This document shows, one piece after another, positions 14,390 to 45,515 of a DNA stretch of 64,000 nt (its first letter is position 1; every line of letters starts with the position of its first letter). The stretch lies in contig JANMAY010000055.1 in NCBI GenBank assembly GCA_031360095.1, positions 175 through 64,174 on the forward strand, given 5' to 3'. The position numbers and the translations under genes were made by a program. A model generated the notes under the pieces. It ran no database searches and was not told the origin of the DNA. It saw only the letters and a program-made list of their open reading frames with translations. Origin of the DNA: Gemmatimonadaceae bacterium (GTDB taxonomy: Bacteria; Gemmatimonadota; Gemmatimonadetes; Gemmatimonadales; Gemmatimonadaceae).

Positions 14390-17149
14390 CTACCGACCGC
14401 GCACTTTCGCCGCGAGCGCTGACGCGAGGTACGTGAACGTGTAATCCCCCGATCCGACCTCGAGATCAACGACGTCGTCCGATTGCTTCGCGCCGGTGAC
14501 TGCGGCTCCGCGCTCCCGCACCTGCTCGAGCCGCGCACCCGGCAAATGAATCGACGCCCGCGCATTCGCCGGCACGCGCACGGTCACCTGCATGGTGTCG
14601 CCAGCGAGCGTCCATCCGGATGCCGCTTCGCCGTAGGGGGTGACGAGCGATGCACGCGCGAAGGTGAATGCACCGCCCGGCTGCGGCCGGATCACGAGAT
14701 GCCGGTAGCCCGGCTGCGCGGGATCCATGTCGAGGCCGGCGACAACGCGATACAGCCAATCGCCGACCGCGCCGTATGCGTAGTGGTTGAACGAATTCAT
14801 CCCCTTGTCCTGAAAGCTGCCGTCGGGCTTCTGGCCGTCCCAGCGCTCCCAGATCGTCGTCGCACCCTGCTTCACCGGATACAGCCATGAGGGATACCGC
14901 TCGTTGAGCAGCAGGCGATACGCTTCGTCCAGATGCCCCGTCTCGCTCAGCGTGCGGGTCAGCGCCGGTGTGCCGAGAAAGCCAGTGGTGAGGTGGCGCA
15001 TCGAGGTGACGTCCGCGGCGAGGCGGCGCGCGGCTTCCATGCGCATCGCATCGGACACCAGTCCGAAATCCAATGCGAGCACGTATGCCGTCTGCGTGTT
15101 CGACGTCATGCGGCCGCTCGAGCTGATGTACTCGCGCTGGAACGCCGTCCGGATCTCGTCGAAGAGCGTGCGATACGTGCGAGCGTCGTCGGTCTTGCCC
15201 AGCGCGACGGCACTGCGGGCCAGAATATCCGTCGAATGCGCGAAGTACGCGGTGGCGATGAGATCTTTGTCCGTGGTCGCGCCCGGGTAGTCAGCACGAG
15301 TGGTAGAGAACGCGAGCCAGTCGCCGAAATGCTGGCCGTTCGTCCAGAGATGACTTGCACCAGCTTTCGTATTCATGTATTCGACCCACGCGCGCATGCT
15401 CGGATACTGCCGCTCCAGTACACGCGTGTCGCCGTACACCTGATACATCGTCCACGGCACGATCACGCTGGCGTCGGCCCAACCCGCGCTCGTGCCCGCG
15501 GCCGGCGCGGTGCGCGACAGGACATCGGGGATCACCCACGGCACGCCCCCGTCCGGTTTTTGGTCCGCGGCCAAGTCACCGAGCCACTTCGCGAAGAACC
15601 CGCTGACGTCCATGTTGAACGCCGCAGTACGCGCGAACACCTGCGCATCTCCGGTCCACCCGAGCCGTTCGTCTCGCTGCGGACAGTCTGTGGGAATGTC
15701 GAGAAAGTTGCCGCGCTCACCCCACACGATGTTGTTCTGGAGCTGATTGACAAGCGAATTCGAGCTCTCGAACCGTCCGGTCGTCGCCATGTCCGAATGG
15801 ATCACGATCCCCGTGATCGCATCGAGCGTGGGCGTGCCGGGATAGCCCTCGACGGCGACGTAGCGGAATCCCTGGAAGGTGAAGTGCGGCTCGTACGTCT
15901 CGACGCCACCGCCCTTGAGGGTGTACTGCACTGTCTCCTGTGCGCCGCGCAGGTTCTCCGTGTAGAAGTTGCCCGCCTTGTCGAGCACCTCCGCGTGACG
16001 GAGACGAACGCTCGTGCCCGCGGGGCCGCTCACGCGCAGCCGTACCCATCCCACCATGTTCTGCCCGAGGTCGAACACGGTTTGCCCCGAGGGCGTCTGG
16101 AGAAGCTTGACCGGCTTGAGCTCCTGCATGCGACGAACGGGTGGACCCTGCGGCGCGATCAGCGTAGCGGTGATCCCGTCGAGCGTGCGCACGCCGCGCC
16201 AGCTGCGATCGTCATACTGCGGGCGACTCCATCCCTCGCGCTCGAGTCGGGCGTCGTACGTCTCGCCATCGTAGATGTCGGAGACGATGATCGGACCGGT
16301 TGCGGCCTTCCAGCTGGTATCCGTACTGATGATTTGCGAGCGGCCGTCGGCATACTGGACAACGAGCTGCGCGAGCAACGCCACACGCGTACCGTAGTTG
16401 TTCCGCTTGCCGCTGAATCCCATGTGGCCGCGATACCATCCGTCGCCGAGTGTCGCGCCGAGTGTGTTGGCTCCGGATTGGAGGAGCGACGTGACGTCGT
16501 AGGTCTCATACTGAATGCGCTTGTCGTAGCTCGTCCATCCTGGCGAGAAGAGATGATCGCCGACGCGGCGTCCATTGAGCTCCATCGCATTGAGTCCCAG
16601 GCTCGTCACGTAGAGGCGCGCCGACGCGATGCGTCCGCTGAGCGCGAATTCGCGACGGAGCATGGGGCTCGGGTTCGAGCGCGTCGTGTCTTCGGGGAGA
16701 TCGGGGGTGACCCAGCGCGCCTGCCAGTCGGACGTGTTCAGCAATCCCATTTCGAAGTACGCCGGCATGCTCCACGGCGAAGCGCGTCCGGCATCGTCCC
16801 AAGCCCGCACTTGCCAGTAATAGCGCTTCCCCGATTGCAGCGCCGGCCCGCCGTACAAACGGAAGATGGATTCGTCGCTCGCCACCCGCCCGGAATCCCA
16901 GATCAGGGTTCGTCCGAACGCCGTGGAATCAGGCGCGACCCGAATCTGATACGCGCTCTGCATCGTGCTGCGACGAGTAGCGTGGAGACGCCAGCTCAAT
17001 CTCGGCGAGCGGACATCGGTGCCGATGGGATTCTGATGGTACTCGGTTCGCAGATTCTCGAGGTGGAACTCCTGTGCGGAGATGGCCGCCGGGAACGCAC
17101 TCAGCGCGAAAAGAGCGATACGAAGTGCTGCGCGTGCAGTCATGGTCAT
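14390..17149 (-). CDS. Alpha-L-rhamnosidase, glycoside hydrolase family 78
   Basis: ORF 14390-18232 trimmed to the ATG at 17149 (MTMTARAALRIALFALSAFPAAISAQ signal). GH78 hallmarks are LENLRTEYHQNPIGTDVRSPRLSW and DCPQRDERLGWTGDAQVF. The upstream 1083 nt of the ORF lies antisense to the GH16 gene and has no signal peptide or recognisable domain. Confidence 0.9.
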   Translation of the reverse strand: MTMTARAALRIALFALSAFPAAISAQEFHLENLRTEYHQNPIGTDVRSPRLSWRLHATRRSTMQSAYQIRVAPDSTAFGRTLIWDSGRVASDESIFRLYGGPALQSGKRYYWQVRAWDDAGRASPWSMPAYFEMGLLNTSDWQARWVTPDLPEDTTRSNPSPMLRREFALSGRIASARLYVTSLGLNAMELNGRRVGDHLFSPGWTSYDKRIQYETYDVTSLLQSGANTLGATLGDGWYRGHMGFSGKRNNYGTRVALLAQLVVQYADGRSQIISTDTSWKAATGPIIVSDIYDGETYDARLEREGWSRPQYDDRSWRGVRTLDGITATLIAPQGPPVRRMQELKPVKLLQTPSGQTVFDLGQNMVGWVRLRVSGPAGTSVRLRHAEVLDKAGNFYTENLRGAQETVQYTLKGGGVETYEPHFTFQGFRYVAVEGYPGTPTLDAITGIVIHSDMATTGRFESSNSLVNQLQNNIVWGERGNFLDIPTDCPQRDERLGWTGDAQVFARTAAFNMDVSGFFAKWLGDLAADQKPDGGVPWVIPDVLSRTAPAAGTSAGWADASVIVPWTMYQVYGDTRVLERQYPSMRAWVEYMNTKAGASHLWTNGQHFGDWLAFSTTRADYPGATTDKDLIATAYFAHSTDILARSAVALGKTDDARTYRTLFDEIRTAFQREYISSSGRMTSNTQTAYVLALDFGLVSDAMRMEAARRLAADVTSMRHLTTGFLGTPALTRTLSETGHLDEAYRLLLNERYPSWLYPVKQGATTIWERWDGQKPDGSFQDKGMNSFNHYAYGAVGDWLYRVVAGLDMDPAQPGYRHLVIRPQPGGAFTFARASLVTPYGEAASGWTLAGDTMQVTVRVPANARASIHLPGARLEQVRERGAAVTGAKQSDDVVDLEVGSGDYTFTYLASALAAKVRGR

Positions 17150-17398
17150 AGAGGATGAGGGCGGAACAGCGGTTTTTCTACCGCAGAGGCGCAGGGACCG
17201 CAGAGGACGGCAACAGCAGGCCTCACGCGCACCTTGGACTTGCTTTCGGTTTGGTCGAAGCGCAAGTACGGGTGGCGCGTCGTAGGAACAGTCCGCCCGT
17301 TCCAGCCCTTTCCGACTCTTCCCCAAATTCAGTTGCGATTCGTCCCTGCCATCTCTCGTGAGCCGTTGCAGTTTCCGGGTCGATCCCGGTATTCCCGG

Positions 17399-18226
17399 AT
17401 GATCGTTTTTGCATTCTCCGTCGCACTGGCCGCACCTGCGGAGTCGCAGCGAACCGCCGTTCCCGGATATCGACTCGTGTGGTCCGACGAATTCGATCGC
17501 GACGGTTGGCCCGATCCGAGAAAGTGGACCTACGAGCGCGGCTTCGCACGCAATCAGGAGCTGCAGTGGTATCAAGCCGACAATGCGCGCGTGCAGAATG
17601 GGATGCTGATCATCGAAGCGCGCCGGGAGCAGAAGCCGAATCCGCTGTTCGTGCCGGACAGCACTGACTGGAGGCGGAAGCGGCCGAACATCGAGTACAC
17701 ATCGTCGAGTTTGACGACACGGGGGCTGCACAGCTGGCGCTACGGCCGCTTCGAGATGCGGGCGCGCATCGACGTGCGGCCGGGAATGTGGCCGGCGTTC
17801 TGGACCGTGGGCGACGGCGGACGCTGGCCCGCCGGTGGCGAGATCGACATCATGGAGTACTACGCCGGCATGCTCCTGGCCAACGTTGCGTGGGCGGACT
17901 CGGCAGGGCGCGCGGTGTGGGACGACACGCGCACACCGCTTGCCGAGCTCGGAGGCCCGGAATGGTCTCGGCACTTTCACTCGTGGCGCATGGAGTGGGA
18001 CGAGGACGCAATTCGACTGTCCGTCGATGGAAGGCTTCTCAACACCACCGATCTCCGCGAAACCTTCAATCGAAGCGGTTCGAACGTCAATCCGCTGCGG
18101 CAGCCGCATCACATCATCTTGAATCTCGCCGTCGGCGGCACGCAGGGCGGCGATCCTTCGGCGACGCGCTTTCCGGCGCGCTTTGAGGTGGATTACGTGC
18201 GAGTCTACCAGCGCACTCCGCGCTGA
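17399..18226 (+). CDS. Glycoside hydrolase family 16 (beta-glucanase/laminarinase-like)
   Basis: ORF 17234-18226 trimmed to the ATG at 17399 (MIVFAFSVALAAPAESQ). GH16 catalytic motif GGEIDIME (E-x-D-x-x-E) and the typical YRLVWSDEFD N-terminal strand are present. Confidence 0.85.
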   Translation: MIVFAFSVALAAPAESQRTAVPGYRLVWSDEFDRDGWPDPRKWTYERGFARNQELQWYQADNARVQNGMLIIEARREQKPNPLFVPDSTDWRRKRPNIEYTSSSLTTRGLHSWRYGRFEMRARIDVRPGMWPAFWTVGDGGRWPAGGEIDIMEYYAGMLLANVAWADSAGRAVWDDTRTPLAELGGPEWSRHFHSWRMEWDEDAIRLSVDGRLLNTTDLRETFNRSGSNVNPLRQPHHIILNLAVGGTQGGDPSATRFPARFEVDYVRVYQRTPR

Positions 18227-18286
18227 TCGCACGTGCCAACATCGCGTCGGCCGCGAGCGTACTGCTTAATCGACCCCCATCACACC

Positions 18287-21200
18287 ATGACCGTGTCTTC
18301 TCAGCGTCTGGCAATCACGTGCGCCCTCGTTCTCGCGTCGGCGTCCTCTCTCCGCGCGCAGAACCCCGCGCAGAATCCCGCTCCGGCGCCCACGCCAATT
18401 CCCTCGAGCGGTCCGCTGCCGCGCAACGCCGCGCGTGAACAGGATTTGCTCCGGCAGACGAAAGCGCCCGACGGCTTCACCGTCACGGTCTTCGCCGGCG
18501 CGCCGGTGGCGGAGTATCCCACCTGCCTGGCGAATTCGCCCGACGGCGCACTCTTCGTCTGCGTCGACCCGAATCTTTCTCTCTCGGTCCACAAGGGCAT
18601 CGGCCGCATCGTCCGGCTCGTGGATGACGATCGCGACGGACGCGCCGACCGCTACACCGTGTTCGCGCAGATGGACAGCCCGCGCGGGGCGTTCTTCGAT
18701 GGGTCGACGCTGTATGTCATGCACCCGCCTTTTCTCACCGCGTATCGTGATACCAACGGCGACGGGATCGCCGATGAATCCGATGACCTCGTGAAGGGAC
18801 TGGGGTTCGACCTCGACTTTCGCGGCGCCGACCACACGACCAACCAGATCACGATGGGGATCGATGGCTGGATCTACGTCGCGGTCGGGGACTACGGCTA
18901 TCAAAAGGCCGTCGGCAAGGACGGCGCGACGATCGGCAACCGCGGCGGCAGTGTGGTGCGCGTGCGACCGGATGGCACGGGCCTCGAGATCTACGCCGTG
19001 GGCACCCGCAATATCTACGATGTGGCGCTCGATCCCTTTCTGCACGTGTTCACGCGCGACAACACCAATGACGGCGACGGCTGGGACACGCGGCTGCACT
19101 ACATCCCGGCGTTGGCGCACATGGGCTATCCCATGTACTACAAGAACTTCGCTGGCGAACACATGCCGTCGCTGCACGACTACGGCGCCGGCGCAGGAAC
19201 GGGCGCGGTGTGGGTGCAGGATCCCGGATTTCCCGCCGGCTACGACAACGTTCTGTATACCGGCGACTGGACCATGAACAAGGTCTTTCGCAACGCGACG
19301 ACGTCCAAGGGCGCGAGCTTCGACGTGCAGCAGGACCAGTTTCTTTCGATACCGCGTCCATCGGACATGGTCATGGATGCGAACTCGAACATGTACGTTG
19401 CAACGCTCATTGGCGGCACGTTCACCTACGTCGGCGATACGGTGGGCGGCGTGGTGCGCGTGAGCTATCCCGCCACATCGGGCGCAGCCGCGCCGCTGTT
19501 GTCTGCACTCGGCAACAGTGAGCTGATGGACGCGCTCGTTGGCCCGTACGCGGAACGCAGGCTTCAAGCGCAGCGCGAGCTGCTGCGTCGCGCGCGGCCG
19601 GGCAGACTTCGCGCCTGGTGGACCCGACGGTCCATCGTCGGCCGGCTTTCCGAGCTCACGCTCGACGCGAGGCGCCCCGACTATGCGCGCGTCGCCGCCA
19701 TGTTCACGCTGAAGCAGATTGCCGGGGTTTCCTCGCACGACGTGCTGTTGCGCGTTGCCGACGATCCAGCGATGCGCGCCCTGGCGCTGCATGCACTCGC
19801 CGACGACACTCGGCAGCTTGCCGGGGTGAGTACGAGCGTGTTCGTGCGTGCGCTGTCCGACCGCGATCCACGCGTACAGCTTCAGGCAATCGAAGGGCTC
19901 GTCCGACTCGGCGCTCATGATGCGGCAGCGTCAATCGTTCCGCTGACGGGAAGCGCGGATGCGGCAATCGCGCACGTCGCGGTGAAGGCCCTCGTCGCTC
20001 TCGATGCCGGTGCGGCGGCGCTCGCCGTCCTGGATACCGCGACACCCGACGTGCGCCGCGGCGCATTGCGTGTACTCGAGCAGATGCACAATGGAGCGTC
20101 CGTCAGCGGATTGATCGCGCGCTTTCGCACGACGAATGACGCGTCGGCTCGGCGTGATGTGCTCGCGGCGCTCGCGCGTCTGTACAACCGCGAAGCGGCG
20201 TGGAAGGGCGAGTGGTGGACGACGCGCCCCTCGTTCCTCGGCCCGTACTTCGCGCCCACACCGTGGGAGGAGAGCGCCACGATCCGTCCCGTGCTGCGCG
20301 ACGCGCTCCTCGCGGCGAACGGCGCCGACCTTGAAACGCTCGCGACTGAGCTCGCGCGCAACCGTGTGTTGCCGCAGGGAGCGAAGTCGATTGTCATCGC
20401 CCTGGCAGCACCGAATGATCAATCGCGCACCGAGGTGATCGACGCGCTCGTCGGCACATCGCATCTCGAGACCGCGGCGATCGCCATGCTTCCGTCGCTC
20501 GACAAGCGGAGTCCGGTGCTGCATTCCGCCGTCGCGCAGTTGCTCGCCGGTGAGACCTCAGTCGGCGAGCAGCTGCTCCCCCTGGTCAGAACCGGCGCGC
20601 TCGACTCCACCCTCGACGCCGAAATTCGCGGACGGCTCCTCAACTCCGTCGCACAGATGTCCGATTCGTCGGCGCGCGCCACATCGACTGAGCTGTTCGT
20701 CCGCACCGTGCCCGGTCCGGCAACACCAGCGCCGGTCGAGGCGGCATGGCGTCGGTACGTCGGCGACAGACGTCGCGGAGCGGAGCTCGACCAGTGGGTT
20801 CGTCTGGCACAAACGGGCGACCCGGCGCAGCGCACGCTCGCATTCTCCGTGCTCGCGCAGGGAATTCGCGGACAGCGCGTTCCGCCCGCGATTCGCAACA
20901 GAGTCGTACCGGTGATCGACGCGGCGTGGTTCGATGCAGCAGCGACGCCGAGTCTCGTGCAGGCGATCCGCGTGATGAAGCTGGAGAGTCAGTACGCCAA
21001 CCATCTGACGGCGTACGACCAGGCGCTCGTCGCGCAGGAGAATGCGCGAAAGGGAATCGTCGTGGTGAACGCACTCAAAGCCCATCCCAAGGAATGGATT
21101 CAGCTCTGGAACGGGCGCGATCTTCAGAATTGGGACATCAAGTTCAAGGGGCGCCCGGTCAACGAGAATTACAACGATACGTTCCGCGCCGAGAGCGGAT

Positions 21201-22312
21201 TGTTGAAGGTGCGATACGACAAGTGGAACGGCTTCAAGGGAGAATTTGGGCACATCTTCACCCGGCGTCCGTTCTCGAATTACATCGTCGCGGCGGAGTA
21301 TCGCTTCGTCGGCAACCAGGTCGCGGGCGCCGGCCCGCAGTACGCCTGGGCACTCCGCAACAACGGCATCATGATCCAGTCGCAGTCCGCGGCGAGTATG
21401 GGGATCGATCAGGATTTTCCCATCTCGCTCGAGGTGCAGCTGCTCGGCGGACTCGGCACCGGTCCGCGCTCGACGGCCAACCTGTGCACTCCGGGCACGA
21501 ACGTGCACTTTGGCGATTCACTGATCACGCAGCACTGCATCAACTCGATTTCGAGGACCTACGACGGCGATCAATGGGTCCGCGTCGAAGCCCTGGTGCT
21601 CGGCGACTCGATCATCAAGCACATCGTGAATGGCGACACGGTGATGACGTACCGCAAGCCGGAAATGGGCGGCGGCAGCGCGAACAACACGGCGCCGGGT
21701 GTGCTCGTTCCCGGCAAGCCTCTCACCGAGGGCTACATCACTCTACAGGCTGAGACGGCGGAGATCGATTTCCGGAAGGTTGAGCTCCTCGAGCTCAAGG
21801 GTTGCATGAATCCGAAGGCAAAGGAGTACAGACGTCACTTCATCGTGTCGGATCCGAGTGCGTGCAGCAGCGCTGCCGGCGAGCAGACCAAGGCCGTAGC
21901 CGAAACGGCTCCGTCGCCGGGGGCAGCAGCGCCACGCTCCGATGCCGAAGGACGACGTGTGTACTCGACGACATGCGTCGCGTGCCATCAGGTGAGCGCG
22001 CTGGGACTGCCTCCGCAGTATCCGCCGCTCGCGGGAAGCGAGTGGGTTACGGGCGACGAGCGCCGGTTGCTGCGCCTCATCCTGCACGGGCTCGTCGGGG
22101 AGGTGAGCGTCGCCGGCGAGACGTTCAACGGGGCAATGCCTGGCTGGGGACCGATGTTGAAGGACGCGGAGATCGCCGCCGTCGCGACGTACATTCGCGG
22201 CAACTTTGGAAACAAGGCCGCGCCGGTGAGCGCGGCGGCAGTTGCGCGCGTGCGCAAGGATTTTGCAACGCGCACGACGCCATGGACTGCCGCAGAACTG
22301 ACAAGACCTTGA
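18287..22312 (+). CDS. Multidomain secreted protein: PVC-type 'membrane-bound dehydrogenase' beta-propeller + HEAT repeats + DUF1080 (3-keto-disaccharide hydrolase-like) + C-terminal c-type cytochrome
   Basis: ORF 18233-22312; the ATG at 18287 gives MTVSSQRLAITCALVLASASSLRAQ. The N-terminal propeller resembles glucose/sorbosone dehydrogenase-like proteins of Planctomycetes/Verrucomicrobia. A HEAT-like region is rich in leucine and alanine. The DUF1080 block runs WIQLWNGRDLQNWDIKF...GYITLQAETAEIDFRKVEL. The heme site CVACH is encoded at 21974-21988. Confidence 0.75.
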   Translation: MTVSSQRLAITCALVLASASSLRAQNPAQNPAPAPTPIPSSGPLPRNAAREQDLLRQTKAPDGFTVTVFAGAPVAEYPTCLANSPDGALFVCVDPNLSLSVHKGIGRIVRLVDDDRDGRADRYTVFAQMDSPRGAFFDGSTLYVMHPPFLTAYRDTNGDGIADESDDLVKGLGFDLDFRGADHTTNQITMGIDGWIYVAVGDYGYQKAVGKDGATIGNRGGSVVRVRPDGTGLEIYAVGTRNIYDVALDPFLHVFTRDNTNDGDGWDTRLHYIPALAHMGYPMYYKNFAGEHMPSLHDYGAGAGTGAVWVQDPGFPAGYDNVLYTGDWTMNKVFRNATTSKGASFDVQQDQFLSIPRPSDMVMDANSNMYVATLIGGTFTYVGDTVGGVVRVSYPATSGAAAPLLSALGNSELMDALVGPYAERRLQAQRELLRRARPGRLRAWWTRRSIVGRLSELTLDARRPDYARVAAMFTLKQIAGVSSHDVLLRVADDPAMRALALHALADDTRQLAGVSTSVFVRALSDRDPRVQLQAIEGLVRLGAHDAAASIVPLTGSADAAIAHVAVKALVALDAGAAALAVLDTATPDVRRGALRVLEQMHNGASVSGLIARFRTTNDASARRDVLAALARLYNREAAWKGEWWTTRPSFLGPYFAPTPWEESATIRPVLRDALLAANGADLETLATELARNRVLPQGAKSIVIALAAPNDQSRTEVIDALVGTSHLETAAIAMLPSLDKRSPVLHSAVAQLLAGETSVGEQLLPLVRTGALDSTLDAEIRGRLLNSVAQMSDSSARATSTELFVRTVPGPATPAPVEAAWRRYVGDRRRGAELDQWVRLAQTGDPAQRTLAFSVLAQGIRGQRVPPAIRNRVVPVIDAAWFDAAATPSLVQAIRVMKLESQYANHLTAYDQALVAQENARKGIVVVNALKAHPKEWIQLWNGRDLQNWDIKFKGRPVNENYNDTFRAESGLLKVRYDKWNGFKGEFGHIFTRRPFSNYIVAAEYRFVGNQVAGAGPQYAWALRNNGIMIQSQSAASMGIDQDFPISLEVQLLGGLGTGPRSTANLCTPGTNVHFGDSLITQHCINSISRTYDGDQWVRVEALVLGDSIIKHIVNGDTVMTYRKPEMGGGSANNTAPGVLVPGKPLTEGYITLQAETAEIDFRKVELLELKGCMNPKAKEYRRHFIVSDPSACSSAAGEQTKAVAETAPSPGAAAPRSDAEGRRVYSTTCVACHQVSALGLPPQYPPLAGSEWVTGDERRLLRLILHGLVGEVSVAGETFNGAMPGWGPMLKDAEIAAVATYIRGNFGNKAAPVSAAAVARVRKDFATRTTPWTAAELTRP

Positions 22313-27816: not shown

Positions 27817-30480
27817 CTACATCGGTGTAATCGGCGTGAGCGTCACAGGCCCCACCAGTCCCGATACCCGTACCGGCCACGTCGACGCGTCGAACGGCCG
27901 ATAGTCGAACCCGACATAATTGATGTCGTGAAACGTCTTCCACGAGACGCCGCGCACGTCGAGATCGCGCACACGATTTGCCGAGAGGTTCGTCACCTCG
28001 ATCTCGAGCAGGTTGTTCTTCGCGCGCAGCAAACCTGTCGCGACGCGGAACGGTCGCGCGATCAGTGTGCCGAGGTCGCGTCCGTTCAGCCGGATGCGCG
28101 CGCTCTCCGCCACTCGCCCGAGATCGAGGGAATGGTTCCGCGCGGATGACGGCGCGTCGAAGCGGAGTGCGTATCGGGCCGTGCCGGCGAAGCGGTCCGC
28201 GTCGGCGTCTCCGCGGCCCGTCCATGGAGTGAGTGAGTCGGCAGCGAACGAGGCGGGAAGTGCCGGGCCACCGCTCGTGAAGGTTACCGACCACGTGCCG
28301 CGAAGCGTGATAGGTGCGCCTGTCACACTGTCGTATGCCCAGCGCGGCGCATCGATGCGCCTGTCGAAAGTGCGCAGGATGAGCGAGGAGCCCGGATCGA
28401 GATGCACGCGGACATCGACTCCGCCCTCTTTGCCAGGACGCATATCGGCGAGTCCAGTGCGACCCGTCATCGGATCCATGATCGCGACATGTGCCGCTGT
28501 CGTCGCGAGCGACACCCAGCCGTGCACGGGTTCCGTGCCCGCGTGGCCGATGAAATACTGGCGACCGCTCACCAAGCGCTGCCGAATGAATCGCACACCC
28601 GGTCGGTCCACCATCGTCTCTCGGTGAATGCCGGACGCCGCCAGCAGCGGCTCGAGCTGTTCCCCAACGAGCAACCTGCCCGATCCGACGCGCGCCGCGC
28701 GTACTCCCGCCGCGTCTGCATCCCCGAACCGCACCTGCTGCTTCGCTGTCGCGAGGAGTGCACGACGAGCTTCGAGCTCGAACAGTCCGGGAACATCGGA
28801 CGGCAGAGATCCGAGGAAGACGACGGTCGCCCCGCTTCGCGCCAGCTCGACGAGACGCTGGAACGTTTCGAGTGGCATGTGCTGCGCGCGAGGCACCACC
28901 ATCGCCGCGTATTCCGCGTTGCCCGCGCGCAGGCGATTGCCCGATGTGTTGACGCTCGTCGCCAGCAATCGGTCGGAGACATAGTCGAACCCGTGTCCAG
29001 TCTTCCAAAGCTCCGTGGCGACCGTGCCGACCGGCTTGTCGAACAACCATCTGGCGTTGCGCACCGCGAAATCCACCCGCAGGCGCGTCGTGTCGTGCCA
29101 GTTGTCCCATACGGGCCAGTAGAGCAAGACGTCGTTGTCCGCGCGACCCGCCTGCATCACCGATTGCACACGCGCCACGTACCGATTCAGCACAGGGAGA
29201 TCGCGCCAGAATGCGTTCCGCGGGTTGAACTCCGCCGACGCATAGAACTCCCAGCCCGGCCACGCGACATTTGCCGGCGAATACGCCGTGCCATGATAGA
29301 TCAGATGATTGATGCCGCCGAGAAAAAAGGCGTCAGCCGCCTGCTTCACGTCGTCGAGCGTCGCCGAGAAGTGCTCGCCGAGCCAGGTGAACGCTTCGGC
29401 GGAGGCAAGTGGCAGACCTGCAACGTGCGCGGCGGACGACGCAAACTTGGCCACGAGAATGTCTTCGTCGTTGCTGCTCGGCCGCCCGAATATTTCGGTC
29501 TCCGGCACATCCGACGCGGCATAGAGATCGAGCAGGTTGCCCGGTGAGCCGTGCGCCTGGTTGCGGCTCTTGCTGGCGCGCGCATGCGACCACTCGCGCA
29601 ACGGAAGGAGAAAGTTCGCGAGCAGCATTTCGTCCAGCGTCTGCCGATAGTCCGACTTCACGCGCGCAATGCGCTCCGGATCGCCCTGCCCCGCGAGTGC
29701 CGCGAGCTCGCGCCTGAGGTCGTACTTGCGAGCCCCCAGAAAAAAGTCGAACAGCTCCGATGAGCCGGTTCCCGTATACTCGAAGGAATCGTGGAAGTAC
29801 GCGCCGACCAATCCCCGTTGCATGGGGCCAAGGCGCTCCGCATAGGTGCGCAGAAAATTGTCGGTCGCGGCGCGGGAGAAGACGTCGATCGCAAACCCTT
29901 CCCCCCCCGGCCCCGGACGCTTCACGTTGTCGCCGGAGAAGCGCATCTCGGCGACATGTGTACCCTTCGCCGAGTCGAAGGTGATGCGCAGCGATTTGTT
30001 GGCGTCCGTCGGCGTGACCGTCGCCCCACCGGTTCGCCATCCTGCACCCGGCGGCATGTCGAGTCCCATGCCGAGCCGGTGCGCCTGAGTCGCGGCGTGC
30101 GCGAGCAGTGCGTTCCATCGTGGCGTCAGATACGGAACGAACTGCGACTCCGCACCCTTGGCGCCGTAGATCGCCGTGACTTCGACGCCGCCGAATCCCG
30201 CACCGGCGAGTTGCGTGAGCTCTCTGGTGAGATTGGCCGAATCGACGGCGCTTCCCATCCACCACCAGCGCGTCCACGGTTTGGCGTCGCGGGTGATGGC
30301 CGGCCAGGCGAGAGGAGTGCCATCGCCGCGAGGGCGCTGTGCGAACGCTCCGCGCGACGACAGGAATGCAACTGCAACGACAATGAGCCTGGTGACGCGC
30401 AACGAGGTGCTAGTGTAGATACTGCGCGACAAACGACAGCACGTCGCTCTTGTCCATGCGGAACACACCGCCGGTTCCAC
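27817..30480 (-). CDS. Secreted glycoside hydrolase, GH106-like (alpha-L-rhamnosidase type)
   Basis: 887-aa ORF. The N-terminal motif [15 protein letters not shown] followed by [11 protein letters not shown] is what I recall from BT0986-type GH106 enzymes. The family call is from memory only. The longest ORF start (30480) overlaps the upstream protease gene by 71 nt. An in-frame TTG at 30402 (…[21 protein letters not shown] signal) lies 7 nt after the protease stop and is the more likely start. Confidence 0.55.
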
Positions 30481-38315: not shown

Positions 38316-38336
38316 TACGTCTGTGTCGGGAGCGCT

Positions 38337-38846: not shown

Positions 38847-38983
38847 GATGTCCCCGCTTGCGGACAGTGATGGGCACCCTCACGGGCAACGGCATTTGGC
38901 GCAAGGAATGCAGCGTTGCGGACGCGCGCGACGCACACAACATTGTACACCGCAAGCATCGCGTCACCCCGAGGACCTTCAAA

Positions 38984-39634
38984 ATGCGGACGCATCGGAC
39001 AGTCGCCACGCTCTCGCTCGCCCTTCTTGTCGGCGCATGCGACAAGCGGCAGGAGCCCACCGCCGAACTCCCCAGCGATCTGCAGCGCGACCTCGCCGCA
39101 GCCTCGGCATCGGGAAGCGAGCTGGCATCGGCGCCGCGCAGCTATCAGCGCGCACGATTCGTCTCCGACGTCGAGCGATGGAAATCGAGCGCGCCAGTCA
39201 AGCGGACGGTCACGGTTCACCATCACGCCGCTCAGCCTGCTGTCAGCGAACAGCCCGCGGCCGAGTCGACAACCGATGTCGCGCCTGAACCGGTCGTGAC
39301 CGCATCGGCGAGTCCCGCTCCAGTCGCAACCGAGGCAGCGCCGGTGCTCGATGCCGCCGTTGGCGACGCGCCACCTCCATACCATGGTCCCTCCAGCGCG
39401 CCGTCGGGTTCCACGTCCGAGGGCCCGATCATCGAGCGCGGCAACGGCGGTGGCGGCTTGGGCGGAATGCTCGGCGGCATCATCGGCGCGGTGGTCATCC
39501 GCGGTGGTCACGGCGGCATCGACAAATGCGATCCGCGCACCGATGGACGCCGGCCCACACTCACCGGGCGCCCCGACTTCCGCGATCCCATGCCGCTCAC
39601 GCCACCCATGTTCCCCGGTCGGCGCGGCCTGTAG
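38984..39634 (+). CDS. Hypothetical lipoprotein with proline/alanine-rich middle and glycine-rich C-terminal segment
   Basis: ORF 38858-39634 trimmed to the ATG at 38984 (MRTHRTVATLSLALLVGAC lipobox). The glycine-rich hydrophobic stretch is GNGGGGLGGMLGGIIGAVVIRGGHGG. I recognise no family. Confidence 0.45.
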   Translation: MRTHRTVATLSLALLVGACDKRQEPTAELPSDLQRDLAAASASGSELASAPRSYQRARFVSDVERWKSSAPVKRTVTVHHHAAQPAVSEQPAAESTTDVAPEPVVTASASPAPVATEAAPVLDAAVGDAPPPYHGPSSAPSGSTSEGPIIERGNGGGGLGGMLGGIIGAVVIRGGHGGIDKCDPRTDGRRPTLTGRPDFRDPMPLTPPMFPGRRGL

Positions 39635-39659
39635 CCGTCAGGGCACGACGGGTGACCGC

Positions 39660-39980
39660 CTAGTCAACATGGAACACCTCTCGCAGCGCCACGCTGCGAG
39701 GGCTGTCGTCCGGATTGGTCGGCATGAGATCGCGCATGTGCGACCACCACCGTTTGCACACGTCGGTGCGCGCGATGGCGTCCCACCGCGCTTCGTCCTC
39801 GACCTCCACGTAGCCGAACAAACTACCGTCGCTCTCGTCGAGGAAGATGGAATAGCGGTGCGCACCGTGCGCGCGCAGCACGTCCTCCAGCTCGGCCCAG
39901 ATGGGATTGTGCCGACGTGCGTATTCCTCGCGGCTGCCGGCGTAGACGGCCATCCGGAAAGCCTTTCGCATCGGGGTCAT
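39660..39980 (-). CDS. rhaM: L-rhamnose mutarotase
   Basis: ORF 39660-40100 trimmed to the ATG at 39980, giving 106 aa. The sequence [49 protein letters not shown]...[10 protein letters not shown] matches the RhaM/YiiL family pattern and size. Confidence 0.85.
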
Positions 39981-39996
39981 CAGTTCAGGCTCTGAG

Positions 39997-41103
39997 CTAC
40001 TGCCGCCCGATGCCGAACTGATCACCCGCCTGCACCGGACGGCCGTCGTCGAACACGATCTCGAGTAGCTTCTCGCTCTGCACCGGCTTCCCGTTCTCAT
40101 CCGCCAACGTGGTCACGACGCGCTTGCGCCTGACGTCGATGATCTCACCAGACGACGGAATGGCAAACCGTCCGTCGATGGTGAACGTGACCCAGCCCGG
40201 TTGGTCGCGCACCACGAAGCTGTGGATCAATCGCGGCGGCATCATGGTGTTGTCGAACACGTGCACTCGGCTATTGGCACCATCACACACCCACACCTCG
40301 CGCTCGTCCGGGGTGAGGCCAACACCATGACTGGGACAGCCGTGGCGCTTCACCGGTCCCTTCTCGAACCCCGGTACCTCAACGCGATGCAGCACCGCGC
40401 CCGTGCGCAGATCGCCGATCTCGAAGCCGAGCAGCTCGTTGACGTTCACGTAGCACCGGCCGCGTACACCAACGGTGAACGGTCGAATGACGTTGCCGAA
40501 TGGGCCGATCTCACGCACTATCTCGCGTGTGCTCGTGTCGACCACGCGCAGTAGCGGCGACCGGAGACCTGCAAGGTAGGCATACCTCCCGTCAGCGGAA
40601 CACAGAGTGTTGTGTGCACCGGAGTTCGGCACGATGCGCGACGTGACGTCGCCCGTGGCAGCGTCCACCACGTTCCAGTGCGGCCCTTCGAGCGAGGGGA
40701 GATAGATGGTGCGTCCATCTGGCGTCAACGCCATACGATCGCATCCGCCGTCGTACTCACGATTCCACAGCACCGCGTCCGTCACGAGATCCAGACACAC
40801 CATCCGCTTGATGGTCGTCACGTACACTCGGCCCGTAGCTGCGCTTGCGCAGATGCCCTTGACGTTCTCCGGCGGTGCGCCAACAGGCGCATTCGGCGTC
40901 GGGATTCGGCGCACAAAGCGAAAGTTGTCGTCGATGTCGTAGACGAGAATGCCGATGCCGCCCCACTCTACGTAATTCCGTATTCCCGGCTCGGCGACGT
41001 AGAGCAGACGTCGCTGCGCGAGACGCGGACGCAGCGCATGCACGCCGAACAATGCGACGCTAGTGCGCGCAACGAAGGTTCGGCGGGAGATTGGTTCCGT
41101 CAT
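39997..41103 (-). CDS. Secreted beta-propeller protein (YncE/YVTN/lactonase-like)
   Basis: ORF 39997-41595 trimmed to the ATG at 41103 ([20 protein letters not shown], Tat-like), giving 368 aa. It has repeated propeller-blade patterns ([32 protein letters not shown]). It sits 26 nt after the upstream gene and 16 nt before rhaM. Confidence 0.55.
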
Positions 41104-41129
41104 GAAGGAGCCTCTGCGTGCTGACACGT

Positions 41130-43835
41130 TTACCGCTGCGGTCCACGAATGGCGTACAACTGAATTTGCTGCATGGCCCATGGCGGTCCGTTCTCCACGC
41201 TCGCCGTCTGCGTGATGCGGACGAGCTTCGCCGACACCGGTCGGAACGCAATCACCATCGACTGACCCGTTCCCTGCCCTTCGGCGACGGGGTCGCTCCA
41301 GGTGGTTCCATCCAGAGAAACTTGTATGCGGTATCCGCGCGGAAAACGCGCCGGCACCGGTGGAGTCGTGGGCCGCCCACCGGCCGCGGACTGGAATTGG
41401 ATCTCCGACAGCATCACCGGTTCGGGGAGCTCGAACTGAAACCACATCCCCGCTAGCTGCGACACAACGGTCGACCACCCCGCAGTGCCAAATGCTCGAA
41501 CCGCACTCTCGGTGTTGTGGCTTGCGCTCGCCTTCCATGAGGATTGGACGTGCATCAACATCGGTACTGATGAGGACAGCTCCTGATACGTCCACGGTGT
41601 CGTGCGAGCACGCGTGGCCGTGCGGATGGCCGTCACCTGCTCCGATGATACGAACGAGGCCTGATTCGTCATCGAGTTGCGCACGTAGGACGCAACAGCG
41701 GAGATCCAGTCGTCGGACTGCTGGGCTTGGGACACCATGATCTGCCCCGCATACGTCTTTCCATCGATCGGGCCTGTGAGGCCCTGCAACAGCGTCCTCA
41801 CGATGTAGTCCGGATGCCCCGTCACCCGAGGAGAGCCTGCGAGCGCCGGCGCGATCGTCTGACCCGGACCGGCCGGCGTACCCAGCCCCGTCTCACCATG
41901 ACACTGCGAGCACATCTCCTTGTAGACCGTCGCTCCGCGGTCCAGCATCGCGCGTTGCGCAGCGGTGAGGTTGCGGCCGCCCGCGCCTGGGGGCGGCGTG
42001 AGTATCTGCGTGCCAACGAGCTGCACGCCGCGCGCATTGTTCGCAGCGACCGCCGCACGCACCGTGGTCGTCGCATCGCGGACCCTGAGCGTGTTCATCG
42101 TCAGCAGCGCCTGGATGACGACGTCCGCGTCGGGATCGCGAGTCAGGCGGCGATAATCGGCTGCCAGCGACGTGTCGCCACTCTTATAGAGCGTCTCGCT
42201 CGCGCGCATCGCGTGCATCCGCATGCGGGGGTTCGCATCGCTCATCTGCTCGCGTACGAATGCAGCGTCCAGCACACCGAGCCCCTCGAGTGTCCACAGT
42301 GCATGCATGCGAGCGACGGGAATCGTGTCCCGACGCGCGATGGCCTGGAGCGCCGGAACCACGGACCGATCCTGTCGCAGCACCAACAACTGCTGCGCCA
42401 TGTCGCGCCACCAGCCATTGGGGTGCGACAGGTGCCGAACGAGCTCCAAAGGAGTTTCGTCGAGCATCCGCGGCCGCGTGGTGTCGCGCGGGTTGGCGTC
42501 ATGCGTCAACCGCCAGATCCGGCCGAGTCCCACGATTCGGTCGAGCTTGTACTGCTCGACTTTGGCGCGGAGATACGAACCCTTCGGCGTCCACTGGCTC
42601 TCTTGGATGATGCCGTGATACATGTCGACGACGTACATCGAGCCGTCCGGCGCCGTCTTGATCTCTACCGGCCGGAAGAGCGGATCCGCCGAGCGGATGA
42701 ACTCGGACTTGTCGGGCTGGTAGACGTTCCGGATCTGCGTGATCCCGTCCGTTTTCACAGGCCGCACGCGGCGAACCACTCGGCCCACGACCTCGCCGTA
42801 GAAGTAGTCGCCGAGCAGGTCCGCGGGCAGTCGGCCGCCCCGGTAGACGTTGGAGCCGGATCCTGCGGTGGCACGACTGAGCGACCCATCGGGCATGCGA
42901 ACGACCGTCATACCGCCCTGCATGTCCGCGATGCGCATGGGCGCACCGAAGATTTCGTCGAAGCCGGGCGCGTATTGATCGGGGATCGCGAAGTTGCCGT
43001 ACGCGATGGGAAATTGGAAATACGACGGCACACCGCTCGCGCCGCCCTGGAACCAGACCTTGCCGTCGTCATCCTGCGACGCGCCCCATTGCGCGCCGTT
43101 GAAGCCGGTCGCTTCGCGAATCACCCCCGTCGGCGTCGCACGCACGCGGAATGCATTCACGGTGCTGTACAGCCAATTGTCCATCGCCCAGAAGAGCGAC
43201 GACTGCAGATGCTCCACGTTCGCCAGGCGGCCAAAGTTGGTGGTGAACAACTCCTTCGTGTCCGCGGTGCCGTCGCCATTCGTGTCGGTGAACTTCCAGA
43301 CGTCGTTGCTGTTCGACTCCATCGTGAGAATCGCGTTCGCGCCGTATGGTGTAGCAAATCGCGGAAACACGAGGCTGTCGACGAACACCGAGTGGCTCTC
43401 GTACATGCCGTCGTTGTCCCGATCCTCCCATCGTGAAATGCGACTCACCGGTGCGAGTTGATCGCGCGCGTCCGCGTCGAGCATGTAGGTGCGAAGCTCG
43501 AGCACGAACATCCGGCCGTTGCCGTCGAACGAGATCGTTGCCGGCTGCTGAATTGCCGGCTCGGTGAGGATGGGTTCCATCCGGTAGCCAGCCGGCAGGA
43601 TGAACCGGCTCTGCTCGTCGGTGGGCGAGCGCGGTTCAACGGGCGGCTTGGGTGAGAGGTCGGCGCCTTCGAATGGATCGCGCGGCGCCGGTGCCGGCGC
43701 GGCAGTCTGCGTCGACGTCGTGGGCTGTGGAGGTACAGAGCGCCCTGTCGAGCAGCCGCCACCGCCGATCAGCGCGAGCCCGGCCAGCGCGAGCTGAGCC
43801 CGGTGTGCGAGAGCTGAGGGAAATGGAAGTTCCAT
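41130..43835 (-). CDS. Lipoprotein: PVC-type dehydrogenase-like beta-propeller + HEAT repeats + c-type cytochrome + C-terminal F5/8 type C (discoidin) domain
   Basis: ORF 41130-43907 trimmed to the ATG at 43835 (MELPFPSALAHRAQLALAGLALIGGGGC lipobox). It is paralogous in architecture to 18287-22312. The heme motif CSQCH is encoded at 41898-41912. The discoidin-like tail runs GMWFQFELPEPVMLSEIQF...YRIQVSLDGTTWSDP. Confidence 0.75.
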   Translation of the reverse strand: MELPFPSALAHRAQLALAGLALIGGGGCSTGRSVPPQPTTSTQTAAPAPAPRDPFEGADLSPKPPVEPRSPTDEQSRFILPAGYRMEPILTEPAIQQPATISFDGNGRMFVLELRTYMLDADARDQLAPVSRISRWEDRDNDGMYESHSVFVDSLVFPRFATPYGANAILTMESNSNDVWKFTDTNGDGTADTKELFTTNFGRLANVEHLQSSLFWAMDNWLYSTVNAFRVRATPTGVIREATGFNGAQWGASQDDDGKVWFQGGASGVPSYFQFPIAYGNFAIPDQYAPGFDEIFGAPMRIADMQGGMTVVRMPDGSLSRATAGSGSNVYRGGRLPADLLGDYFYGEVVGRVVRRVRPVKTDGITQIRNVYQPDKSEFIRSADPLFRPVEIKTAPDGSMYVVDMYHGIIQESQWTPKGSYLRAKVEQYKLDRIVGLGRIWRLTHDANPRDTTRPRMLDETPLELVRHLSHPNGWWRDMAQQLLVLRQDRSVVPALQAIARRDTIPVARMHALWTLEGLGVLDAAFVREQMSDANPRMRMHAMRASETLYKSGDTSLAADYRRLTRDPDADVVIQALLTMNTLRVRDATTTVRAAVAANNARGVQLVGTQILTPPPGAGGRNLTAAQRAMLDRGATVYKEMCSQCHGETGLGTPAGPGQTIAPALAGSPRVTGHPDYIVRTLLQGLTGPIDGKTYAGQIMVSQAQQSDDWISAVASYVRNSMTNQASFVSSEQVTAIRTATRARTTPWTYQELSSSVPMLMHVQSSWKASASHNTESAVRAFGTAGWSTVVSQLAGMWFQFELPEPVMLSEIQFQSAAGGRPTTPPVPARFPRGYRIQVSLDGTTWSDPVAEGQGTGQSMVIAFRPVSAKLVRITQTASVENGPPWAMQQIQLYAIRGPQR

Positions 43836-43940
43836 CGCGACGAATATGCTTCGCTCTCGCCGCCGCGATAGGCCGAACCGGGCGTGTCTCTTGCACTCGG
43901 CTAGCACATTCGCGACTCATCACCTCTGGCCGGAGGCATC

Positions 43941-44258
43941 ATGTCACGCGTTGCATATGGAAGCACGTTCGTGCTCGTCGCATCACTCATTCTCGCGCGC
44001 CCACTCACTGCGCAAAACAAGATGCCGGACAAGTCCACTGGTTTGTGTGGAGACGGCACCTGGACGATGGCCGCGTCTCAGCGCGGCGCGTGCTCAGCGC
44101 ATCAGGGCGTGAAAAAATGGATCGGCAAGAGACCGCGCGGAGCCAAGGCCCGGTGCAACGACGGCGAGTACTGGGTGAACGCCGCCGCGCAGGGCGCGTG
44201 CTCGGGCCACGACGGCGTGCTCATGTGGTACAAGAAGCCCGCTGGCGGAAAGAAGTAG
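43941..44258 (+). CDS. Secreted DUF3761-type protein with two tandem repeats
   Basis: 105 aa with a signal peptide ending ARPLTAQ. It has two copies of the C-x-DG-x-(W/Y)...GACS-x-H-x-GV...W motif (CGDGTWTMAASQRGACSAHQGVKKW and CNDGEYWVNAAAQGACSGHDGVLMW). Confidence 0.65.
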   Translation: MSRVAYGSTFVLVASLILARPLTAQNKMPDKSTGLCGDGTWTMAASQRGACSAHQGVKKWIGKRPRGAKARCNDGEYWVNAAAQGACSGHDGVLMWYKKPAGGKK

Positions 44259-44278
44259 GAGCGAGTCGCCGAAAGGCA

Positions 44279-44314
44279 GCGCCGGGCCGACGATGAGTCG
44301 GCCCGGCGCTTTTT
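44279..44314. terminator. Rho-independent terminator, usable in both directions
   Basis: A perfect 13-bp GC-rich stem (GCGCCGGGCCGAC / GTCGGCCCGGCGC) with a 5-nt loop, followed by TTTTT on the plus strand. It lies between the convergent DUF3761 gene and pilC, and the T-run abuts the pilC stop codon. Confidence 0.75.
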
Positions 44315-44315
44315 C

Positions 44316-45515
44316 TTACTGCACCGCGTTGATCATGTCGAAGATCGGCAGATACATGGCCACGACCATGCCGCCCACCACCACGCCAAGAAACACGATC
44401 ATGATCGGCTCCATGAGGCTCAGCAAGCCAGACACAGCGGCGTCGACCTCTTCATCGTAGAAGTCGGCGATTTTCGAAAGCATCTCGTCCAGACCACCGG
44501 TCTGCTCGCCCACCGCGATCATCGAGATCACCATCGGCGGAAACACCGCGGACTTCTGCAGCGGTGCGGAGATCGTTTCACCACCGGCGATCGACGTCCG
44601 CGACTCCATGATTGCGTCGGAGATGACGCGGTTGCCCGCCGTCTTCGCCGTGATCTCGAGGCCATCGAGAATCGACACGCCCGAGCCGATCAGCGTACCG
44701 AGCGTCCGCGTGAAGCGCGACACCGCCGACTTTCTGAGCACGTCGCCAAGCACCGGCATTTTCAGCATCAGTTTGTCGATCGCGAGCTTCCCGCTGCTCG
44801 TGGCGTAATACTTTTTGACGAAGAAGACGAACGCGAAAATCGCGGCGAGCACGATGTACCAGAAACTCGTCAGGAACTTCGACATGCCGATGACGACGCG
44901 CGTCGGGAACGGCAGCGCCATGCCGACGCTCGCGAACATCTTCTCGAACACCGGAATCACGAAGATCAGCAGCACGATGATCGCGATGGCCGCCACGCTC
45001 GAGATGACGGCCGGATAGATCATCGCGCCCTTCACCTTGCGCACGAGCGCATCGTTCTTTTCCATGAACGTCGCGAGCCGCATGAGGATGGTGTCGAGAA
45101 TACCGCCCGCTTCACCGGCGGCGACCATGTTCACATACAGCTCGCTGAACGCCTTGGGATGTTTGCGCAGCGCGTCCGCCACGGTGTGACCGCTCTCGAC
45201 GTCGAACACGACGGCGTGCGTCACGTCCTTGAGCGCCTTGTTCTAGCTCTGCTTCGCGAGGATGTCGAGGGCCTCCACCAGCGGCAGGACGGCGTTGATC
45301 ATGGTCGAGAACTGCCGCGTGAAGATCACGATGTCGCGCATCGAGATACGGCCGCCGCTCTTTTTCTTCTTCGCGGTGGCGGTTTCGTCGATCTTCACGA
45401 CGTTCAGGCGCTGCTTTCTCAGCTGCGCGACGACGTCGTCCCGGCTCGGCGCGTCGATCGTTGCGGTGCGAAGGTCGCCGTTGAGGGCGCGGGCCGTATA
45501 GGTAAATGCTGGCAT
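44316..45515 (-). pseudogene. pilC: Type IV pilus platform protein PilC (GspF family) interrupted by one in-frame TAG
   Basis: ORFs 45243-45515 (90 aa, PilC N-terminus) and 44316-45224 (302 aa, remainder) are in the same frame. They are separated only by a TAG at 45243-45245. The continuous reading is ...LDILAKQS*NKALKDVTHAVVFDVESGHTVADALRKHPKAF..., totalling 400 codons including the terminal stop, the normal PilC length. Confidence 0.8.

Follow-up and report, generated by a model that had tools for sequence, protein, structure and literature searches.

The non-phosphorylated L-rhamnose pathway (LRA1-4) consists of rhamnose 1-dehydrogenase, lactonase, rhamnonate dehydratase and 2-keto-3-deoxyrhamnonate (KDR) aldolase, and its gene clusters reportedly often include rhaM, the gene for L-rhamnose mutarotase. 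Here we describe a three-gene unit of a Gemmatimonadaceae bacterium (assembly GCA_031360095.1, contig JANMAY010000055.1, positions 175 to 64,174; this whole stretch of 64,000 nucleotides is called the window), in which rhaM follows two genes for predicted exported proteins. On the minus strand, gene 1 (43835..41130, 901 aa, ATG start) encodes a DUF7133-HEAT-cytochrome c-discoidin protein, gene 2 (41103..39997, 368 aa) a propeller protein, and gene 3 (39980..39660, 106 aa) RhaM. The original prediction took rhaM as tying both exported proteins to rhamnose, and the unit as a candidate for a periplasmic oxidative step on rhamnose glycans. We found this arrangement at none of the related loci that were compared, and we consider the unit to be a lineage-specific juxtaposition instead of a conserved functional module, with a probability of about 0.55.

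Comparison with described systems

LRA1-4 is an oxidative rhamnose route that opens with a dehydrogenase and a lactonase. However, LRA1-4 is cytoplasmic and NAD(P)-dependent, and the window instead encodes the phosphorylated pathway. The gene 3 product resembles E. coli RhaM/YiiL (1x8d) in length, in a gap-free alignment and in having no signal peptide; it differs in that no rhamnose catabolic genes are adjacent and that its gene stands behind two genes for exported proteins.

Gene 1 shares the propeller, the HEAT-like linker and the C-terminal CxxCH with the PVC-type heme-binding CxxCH family (TIGR02604/DUF7133), which is found in Planctomycetota, Verrucomicrobiota and others, but carries an extra C-terminal discoidin domain. 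Members of the subfamily bearing this domain share 55-60% identity, whether they come from Gemmatimonadota, Acidobacteriota or Bacteroidota. The six-bladed propeller fold is also that of the pyrroloquinoline quinone (PQQ) sugar dehydrogenases (sGDH 1c9u/1cq1 and Asd 2g8s), with TM-scores of only 0.4-0.5. The fungal AA12 pyranose dehydrogenase is said to combine a catalytic propeller, a cytochrome and a carbohydrate-binding module; its architecture parallels that of gene 1, whereas its cytochrome is b-type and that of gene 1 c-type.

Another comparison is the periplasmic 3-keto-glycoside route (ThuAB, LacABC and Agrobacterium G3DH, then BT2157). The DUF1080-family protein BT2157 hydrolyses 3-keto-trehalose, and is a 3-keto-disaccharide hydrolase predicted to be periplasmic (PMC8121099). 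DUF1080 is fused to DUF7133 and cytochrome c in a large protein of the window (the megaprotein, described below), and DUF1080 and ThuA are fused to a 66% identical homologue of gene 1, but gene 1 itself has no such partner in the window. In addition, the known dehydrogenases of this route are FAD or NAD enzymes and not propellers like gene 1.

For gene 2, the same fold is found in YVTN propellers (archaeal S-layer protein 1l0q) and in lactonases (YbhE/Pgl 1ri6, 6nau), at 14-18% identity. Gene 2 differs from them by invariant motifs of its own, a twin-arginine translocation (Tat) signal and the absence of a match to the lactonase hidden Markov model.

Recurrence of the three-gene arrangement

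A total of 166 propeller loci (134 after dereplication at 95%) were collected from species-representative genomes, metagenomes and direct look-ups, with propellers 56-82% identical to gene 2. Downstream sequence of at least 500 bp was present at 135 of the 166 and upstream sequence of at least 3 kb at 95. We detected rhaM near the propeller at none of the 166 loci (tblastn, E <= 1e-5). One weak RhaM-like match at locus L024 (33% identity, E 0.002) lay on the other strand, 7.7 kb from the propeller, and was not taken as linkage. A propeller homologue (P0013, 73%) and a RhaM homologue (P0252, 80%) each derive from a JGI contig of 2,962 nt, perhaps the same one. A like agreement in length at 2,622 nt failed, as L115, probably the contig concerned, lacks rhaM; chance alone should produce several agreements of this kind. 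A DUF7133 gene stood beside the propeller at one locus only (L051, Singulisphaera, about 700 bp downstream), and at L020 such a gene was found 8 kb away. In close orthologues from Gemmatimonadaceae (73-74% identical), the propeller gene was preceded by one for a PD40 protein and followed by genes of unrelated kinds.

The neighbours of the propeller were diverse. A Pfam census of 124 immediate neighbours revealed 131 families, each at most five times. The commonest neighbour clusters among the 134 dereplicated loci were TonB receptors (12), GHL6/GH42M-like proteins (11) and ABC ATPases (10), followed by PD40 proteins (9), ClC channels (8) and GH31 (7).

Five other gene 1 loci were inspected, and both the propeller and rhaM were absent from all of them. 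The orthologue at L171 (81%) has a convergent AP_endonuc_2 gene as neighbour, the one at L169 (75%) a nucleoside hydrolase-like gene, and the one at L168 (73%) an FG-GAP protein and type II secretion genes. The orthologue on Gemmatirosa kalamazoonensis plasmid 2 (60%, L170) is accompanied by a kinase, a Tricorn/amidohydrolase-like protein and a peptidase. The homologue on a Catenovulum plasmid (38%, L177) has a divergent ThuA gene and lies in a sulfatase/arabinose region; the hypothetical gene downstream of it showed no homology to the propeller and was rejected as a counterpart of gene 2.

The genes were also found apart within single genomes. In G. kalamazoonensis the propeller gene is chromosomal, whereas the orthologue of gene 1 belongs to plasmid 2, and in the metagenome-assembled genome GCA_036008805.1 the gene 1 orthologue and rhaM lie on separate contigs. 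The order gene 1-propeller-rhaM was found only in contigs 99-100% identical to the window. Together with the four rhaM loci described below, none of which has the arrangement, recurrence was 0 of 166 propeller loci, 0 of five gene 1 loci and 0 of four rhaM loci; the linkage that was to tie the exported proteins to rhamnose is thus absent in every relative examined, an outcome that the original prediction had itself named as refuting it. Since the grouping is confined to the window organism, it lends little support to the idea of a new pathway of rhamnose oxidation.

RhaM and its usual genomic home

Gene 3 encodes unambiguously a cytoplasmic L-rhamnose mutarotase, as originally annotated. It scored 157.2 bits against the TIGR02625 equivalog model (cut-off 99.6) and 97.8 bits against PF05336 (cut-off 23.4). 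The alignment with E. coli YiiL is gap-free over 102 residues (4-105 against 2-103, E 5.8e-40), and both proteins share the segment EEYxRRHNPIW, which we take to contain the catalytic Tyr18 and His22 of RhaM. There is no signal peptide.

RhaM orthologues of 76-80% identity were found in Gemmatimonadaceae, where rhaM lies in an operon of the order GH43 (or GDSL-GH43)-rhaM-GH28 at four loci from at least two organisms (for example 6989-9993 of L172 and 5810-10064 of L174). GFO/IDH/MocA, AP_endonuc_2 and ThuA genes and a SorC-type regulator are located near these loci. In the window, rhaM stands 33 kb from the rhamnose catabolic genes rhaI/B/EW and 9 kb past the end of the glycan utilisation cluster; rhaI/B/EW, GH78 and GH106 lie 9-37 kb from it.

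Locus L174 connects the two situations. Its TonB receptor is 71% identical to that of the window (7192-9360), and its GDSL domain shares 67% identity with the N-terminal half of the window gene at 11856-14348, which has a PL22-like domain where L174 has GH43. These orthologues indicate that rhaM was apparently relocated by about 26 kb in the window organism, and together with the conservation of GH43-rhaM-GH28 they indicate that the ancestral home of rhaM is the pectin/rhamnose utilisation cluster. Through tblastn we found no remnant of the ancestral GH43 or GH28 beside rhaM; only the GDSL part matches in the window, at 11922-13169. The present neighbours of rhaM appear to be newly acquired, exported and unrelated. 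Because RhaM orthologues stand between secreted glycosidases, it is usual in this lineage for a cytoplasmic mutarotase to share a transcript with exported proteins, and this gives no clue to function.

Gene 1 product

The proposed architecture of gene 1, a dehydrogenase-type HEAT-cytochrome c protein with a CSQCH motif and an F5/8 type C domain, agrees with the domain matches. DUF7133 (PF23500) covers residues 70-446 (E 3.8e-74, 250.8 bits against a cut-off of 27), and the protein scored 135.9 bits against TIGR02604, "PVC-type heme-binding CxxCH protein" (cut-off 122.2). HEAT_2 reached 24.6 bits, slightly below its cut-off of 27.7, in a HEAT-like helical region. The cytochrome c domain comprises residues 630-720, with cytochrome c Pfam matches above their cut-offs. 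The CSQCH motif (C642/C645/H646) and the distal ligand M700 are invariant across 31 homologues. The F5/8 type C domain (discoidin, CBM32-like) covers residues 766-882 (40.8 bits, cut-off 28.2), and this C-terminal part matches CBM32-type modules. A cysteine follows the N-terminal hydrophobic stretch in most homologues, although the lipobox GGGC is non-canonical; a lipoprotein, as proposed, is plausible from these residues.

The DUF7133 domain was modelled as a six-bladed propeller (pLDDT 78). Its Foldseek list included virginiamycin B lyase, HHIP, sGDH, Asd and other PQQ sugar dehydrogenases, with TM-scores of 0.37-0.49 and 10-13% identity. Gene 1 had no match to Pfam GSDH (PF07995) at E <= 0.01, and there are no pqq genes in the window. 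Cytochromes similar to that of gene 1 occur as fused domains in copper nitrite reductases, and as subunits in the dehydrogenases of fructose, glucose and alcohol.

Gene 1 has a well-defined family architecture, 55-81% identical across phyla. The 66% identical homologue mentioned above (P0164, metagenome, 1353 aa) has DUF1080 and ThuA fused at its N-terminus. The homologue P0126 is joined to FG-GAP repeats and P0208 to a ceramidase-like domain, and these fusions apparently mirror upstream neighbours. The family is large, highly conserved and known but uncharacterised: our literature search for DUF7133 found no papers, and we know of no DUF7133/TIGR02604 member with tested function or known activity. 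From its domains, gene 1 probably encodes a periplasmic, cytochrome-linked enzyme acting on carbohydrates; rhamnose specificity is unsupported.

Gene 2 product

The gene 2 protein carries the twin-arginine motif SRRTFV with a hydrophobic stretch behind it, and R7 and R8 are at least 90% conserved among 30 homologues. The Pfam TAT_signal and TIGR Tat models gave no match. The AlphaFold model is a seven-bladed propeller (pLDDT 85.6). It matched the YVTN propeller 1l0q (Foldseek E 9e-16, profile E 5e-19), and its best TM-score was to 6-phosphogluconolactonase 6nau (0.70/0.76, 14% identity), although generic WD40/YVTN propellers score nearly as well. Thus the Tat-like export and the propeller of the original prediction stand, and the YncE assignment holds only loosely: Pfam YNCE (PF21783) was unmatched, YncE was absent from the 50 best Foldseek matches, and "YncE" is JGI naming.

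Among Pfam families, only a weak match to NHL was obtained, and Lactonase (PF10282) did not match. Profile comparisons with the lactonases YbhE/1ri6 and 6nau (E 0.4-0.7) and with thiocyanate dehydrogenase (E 0.004-0.25) were not significant. Neither structure nor neighbours gave a function; the fold is a generic seven-bladed propeller and the neighbouring genes are too diverse.

The gene 2 family is very large and unusually conserved, with 56-83% identity over at least seven phyla (Gemmatimonadota, Acidobacteriota, Planctomycetota, Verrucomicrobiota, Bacteroidota, Armatimonadota and Myxococcota). It has its own invariant His- and Cys-rich motifs, partly in low-confidence loops of the AlphaFold model, and these motifs together with the Tat motif hint at a bound cofactor. 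The family is known, uncharacterised and without a conserved gene partner; it looks like a widespread exported enzyme, possibly with a cofactor bound.

Layout and transcription of the unit

The window has a G+C content of about 64-65%, and the closest relatives of its proteins are in Gemmatimonadaceae. The coordinates of the three same-strand genes were confirmed, with gaps of 26 nt between genes 1 and 2 and 16 nt between genes 2 and 3. Because RhaM homologues are mostly 104 aa long, the ATG at 39971 may be the true start of gene 3; the protein would then have 103 aa and the second gap 25 nt.

Upstream, the unit is bordered by a small divergent DUF3761 gene (43941..44258, plus strand). The 105 nt between it and gene 1 (43836..43940) are presumed from their position to hold the promoter of the unit; no consensus sigma-70 site and no palindrome were found in them. 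A perfect, G+C-rich 14-bp hairpin flanked by an A-run and a T-run (44278-44310) is located between the DUF3761 gene and the T2SS-F gene of a type II secretion system-like set. It could serve as a bidirectional terminator, and it also sets the three-gene unit apart from the upstream T2SS-F gene. Downstream, the border after rhaM is a convergent open reading frame (ORF) of 258 aa without Pfam match (38858..39634, plus strand), of which the G+C content at third codon positions is 0.76 against 0.68 for the minus-strand ORF overlapping it.

We found no terminator-like hairpin between the three genes, and an Rfam scan of 38000-45500 returned nothing at E <= 0.1. The three genes are likely co-transcribed as one operon, judging from their spacing. 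A weak sigma-70-like match (TTGCCA-16-GATCAT with extended TG, 40166-40139, minus strand) lies inside the 3' end of gene 2, about 160 nt before rhaM, and is a possible internal promoter for it. It matches 9 of 12 positions of the E. coli consensus, which may not hold for Gemmatimonadota promoters. Two such sites were found in the region against 0.7 expected by chance, which is no proof of function. A comparison of the gene 1 upstream region with the rha and GH promoters gave no shared operator: there was no palindrome, and only GC-rich 12-mers with two mismatches were common, at chance level.

Transcription would run from within the 105-nt divergent region to a point short of the convergent ORF, and the three proteins may in this way be made together during glycan degradation. 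The gene 1 lipoprotein would face the periplasm, where its discoidin domain may bind glycan, its six-bladed propeller may oxidise a sugar hydroxyl and its c-type haem may pass electrons towards the respiratory chain. Such a role would be analogous to that of the periplasmic glycoside 3-dehydrogenases ahead of DUF1080 3-keto-glycoside hydrolases. Gene 2 would supply a Tat-exported seven-bladed propeller. RhaM would speed the interconversion of rhamnose anomers after uptake and feed the isomerase-kinase-aldolase pathway at 2-7 kb. Its gene would have moved about 26 kb from the pectin/rhamnose cluster and landed behind the two exported proteins.

Weighing of the explanations

Several points weigh against a mere juxtaposition. 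The 26- and 16-nt gaps are a strong sign of co-expression, which often goes with a functional relation between genes. Rhamnose-related genes (GH78, GH106 and rhaI/B/EW) abound in the window. Paralogues of gene 1 cluster with rhamnosidase-like genes, namely the megaprotein of the window and those of G. kalamazoonensis locus L176, so a rhamnoside-linked role of gene 1 is possible. The comparison itself covered five gene 1 loci only, and for the closest relatives of the propeller (83%) the contigs were too short to show the neighbourhood. As for the enzymatic reading of gene 1, the Foldseek TM-scores of DUF7133 to PQQ dehydrogenases are below 0.5, its catalytic role is putative, and neither gene 1 alone nor the family profile gave a PDB sequence match for the domain.

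It might be speculated, as in the original prediction, that the unit encodes a periplasmic oxidation of L-rhamnose or rhamnosides; gene 1 would then oxidise the sugar, the cytochrome accept the electrons, the propeller assist (e.g. as a lactonase) and RhaM supply or consume the anomer. The tight spacing on one strand, the GH78, GH106 and rhamnose catabolic cluster in the window, the DUF7133-cytochrome c paralogues by GH78-like and GH106 genes in both the window and G. kalamazoonensis, and the best TM-score of the propeller to a seven-bladed 6-phosphogluconolactonase would all fit. We regard this as very improbable, however, for the arrangement is missing from the propeller, gene 1 and rhaM loci alike. 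Lacking a signal peptide, RhaM has no access to substrate in the periplasm. Neither an L-rhamnonate dehydratase (enolase superfamily) nor a dedicated KDR aldolase was detected in those ORFs of the window that were scanned, so nothing nearby would use the oxidised product. Moreover, the region upstream of gene 1 shares no operator-like motif with the rha/GH promoters, and in G. kalamazoonensis the orthologue of gene 1 stands among a kinase, a peptidase and an amidohydrolase, not among sugar genes. With the three-gene unit improbable as its seat, the broader proposal, a periplasmic oxidative step by DUF7133-cytochrome c proteins in the degradation of rhamnose-containing glycans, has support of its own at the megaprotein locus, where the clustering with GH78-like, GH106 and DUF1080 genes is kept in G. 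kalamazoonensis.

If rhaM is set aside as a passenger, genes 1 and 2 might still be a functional pair, a glycan oxidoreductase with a lactonase or a metal-dependent accessory protein, acting on a carbohydrate other than rhamnose. Both are exported and only 26 nt apart, the fold of gene 2 is lactonase-like, the Singulisphaera locus shows a DUF7133 gene close downstream of the propeller, and a minority of propeller neighbours are carbohydrate-related (GHL6/GH42M, GH31 and TonB, as counted above). But this adjacency occurs at one of the 134 dereplicated loci, about chance level given the many DUF7133 paralogues. The propeller is also missing from each of the five other gene 1 loci, and the Pfam Lactonase model and the YbhE/6nau profiles gave gene 2 no significant match; such a pair seems to us rather improbable. 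It is unlikely, too, that the three genes are no transcription unit at all, with a promoter for rhaM alone inside the 3' end of gene 2 and no relation between the neighbours in function or regulation. The sigma-70-like site with extended TG inside gene 2 and the evidently recent insertion of rhaM would agree with this; against it are the 9 of 12 consensus positions in a setting where 0.7 sites are expected by chance, the uncertain validity of the E. coli consensus for Gemmatimonadota, and the absence of a terminator-like hairpin between the genes. A lineage-specific juxtaposition of probably co-transcribed genes therefore remains the preferred reading of the unit.

As a conserved module, the unit would have pointed to a new extracytoplasmic, respiration-linked route for deoxy-sugar glycans, and a protein family of which many soil and aquatic bacteria have dozens of copies would have received its first function. 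With the rhaM link as a local accident, the unit is unusable for assigning a function to the DUF7133-cytochrome c proteins, and in practice attention shifts to the megaprotein locus.

Megaprotein locus and its counterpart in Gemmatirosa kalamazoonensis

The megaprotein gene (18284..22312, plus strand) encodes a DUF7133-HEAT-DUF1080-cytochrome c protein, DUF1080 being the 3-keto-disaccharide hydrolase domain. It was described before as paralogous to gene 1, and this holds at a distance: the propeller domains are 24% identical and the cytochrome domains 36%. A GH16 gene (17234..18226, plus strand; match to 6t2n, E 5.5e-43) ends 58 nt before the megaprotein start, and both genes are divergent from the GH78 alpha-L-rhamnosidase gene (14390..17149, minus strand). 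This GH78 had been listed as an overlong ORF of 1280 aa; it really starts at about 17149, with a signal peptide, and the apparent N-terminal extension (17150-18232) is the antisense of the real GH16 gene.

The counterpart in G. kalamazoonensis is located on plasmid 2 (L176, NZ_CP007130 56612-91308; cluster at 3840-19721 and 29316-33949). It begins with a DUF7133-HEAT-cytochrome c gene (36% to gene 1), then a GH16 + GH78-like ORF. On the divergent side are DUF1080, DUF7133-HEAT (55% to the megaprotein N-terminus) and AP_endonuc_2, and the cluster continues with DUF1080 (72% to the megaprotein segment), cytochrome c (65%) and a second DUF7133-HEAT gene. About 11 kb further, GFO/IDH/MocA and GH106 genes were found, the latter 62% identical to the window GH106. 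A megaprotein-like paralogue in this genome passes Pfam GSDH marginally (26.6 against a cut-off of 25). In a third genome, megaprotein-like DUF1080 (77%) and cytochrome c (58%) genes lie about 6 kb from GH43-rhaM-GH28.

In both the window and G. kalamazoonensis, megaprotein-type genes thus adjoin GH16 and GH78 or GH78-like genes and are near GH106. The megaprotein is a fusion of genes that are separate but neighbouring in G. kalamazoonensis, a good argument for joint action of DUF7133-HEAT, DUF1080 and cytochrome c. We consider this cluster a better candidate than the three-gene unit for periplasmic oxidative cleavage of glycosides. The presence of GH16 means that the substrate is not necessarily a rhamnoside. 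The megaprotein and its split-gene counterpart in the cultured G. kalamazoonensis are a better-supported and experimentally tractable entry to DUF7133-cytochrome c function. We might go further and speculate that the DUF7133-HEAT-cytochrome c proteins (the long-unassigned PVC-type haem proteins), among them gene 1, oxidise glycosides in the periplasm, deliver the electrons to the respiratory chain and make keto-glycosides for DUF1080-type hydrolases, and that in Gemmatimonadaceae they work within pectin/rhamnoside loci, with the three-gene unit as a rhamnose-responsive branch; we hold this whole proposal to be doubtful at best, with the odds well against it.

Glycan utilisation cluster and other genes of the window

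The pectin/rhamnose cluster extends from about 0.6 to 30.5 kb and contains an ABC ATPase, an aldolase-SDR fusion, an FGGY kinase, an isomerase-like TIM barrel, a TonB receptor, GH31, GDSL-PL22, GH78, GH16, the megaprotein, GH95 and GH106. On the minus strand, the aldolase-SDR fusion (2152-4536), the FGGY kinase (4362-5801) and the rhamnose isomerase-like TIM barrel (5798-7102) would form the cytoplasmic phosphorylated rhamnose pathway that RhaM would serve. The rhaI/B/EW-type names used here for these genes are said to follow the usage of Rodionova and colleagues. The GH106 alpha-L-rhamnosidase gene (27817..30480, minus strand), whose orthologue in G. kalamazoonensis is near megaprotein-like genes, is immediately followed downstream by GH95 (25377-27815). 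Between the megaprotein and GH95/GH106 we found an ORF of 717 aa (23048-25201, minus strand), Tat-like at its N-terminus (RRDFLQS), for which Pfam gave no match.

Near the three-gene unit, a three-domain multicopper oxidase gene is followed after 18 nt by a cytochrome c gene (36222-38267, plus strand), another possible extracytoplasmic redox pair. The unit is also flanked by a set resembling type II secretion or type IV pilus genes (T2SS-F, two T2SS-E ATPases and a ComEA-like HHH protein) and by a gene for a SprA-like protein of 2054 aa, which together span 44316-52728 and 55151-61315 of the window; the gene 1 orthologue locus L168 likewise adjoins type II secretion genes.

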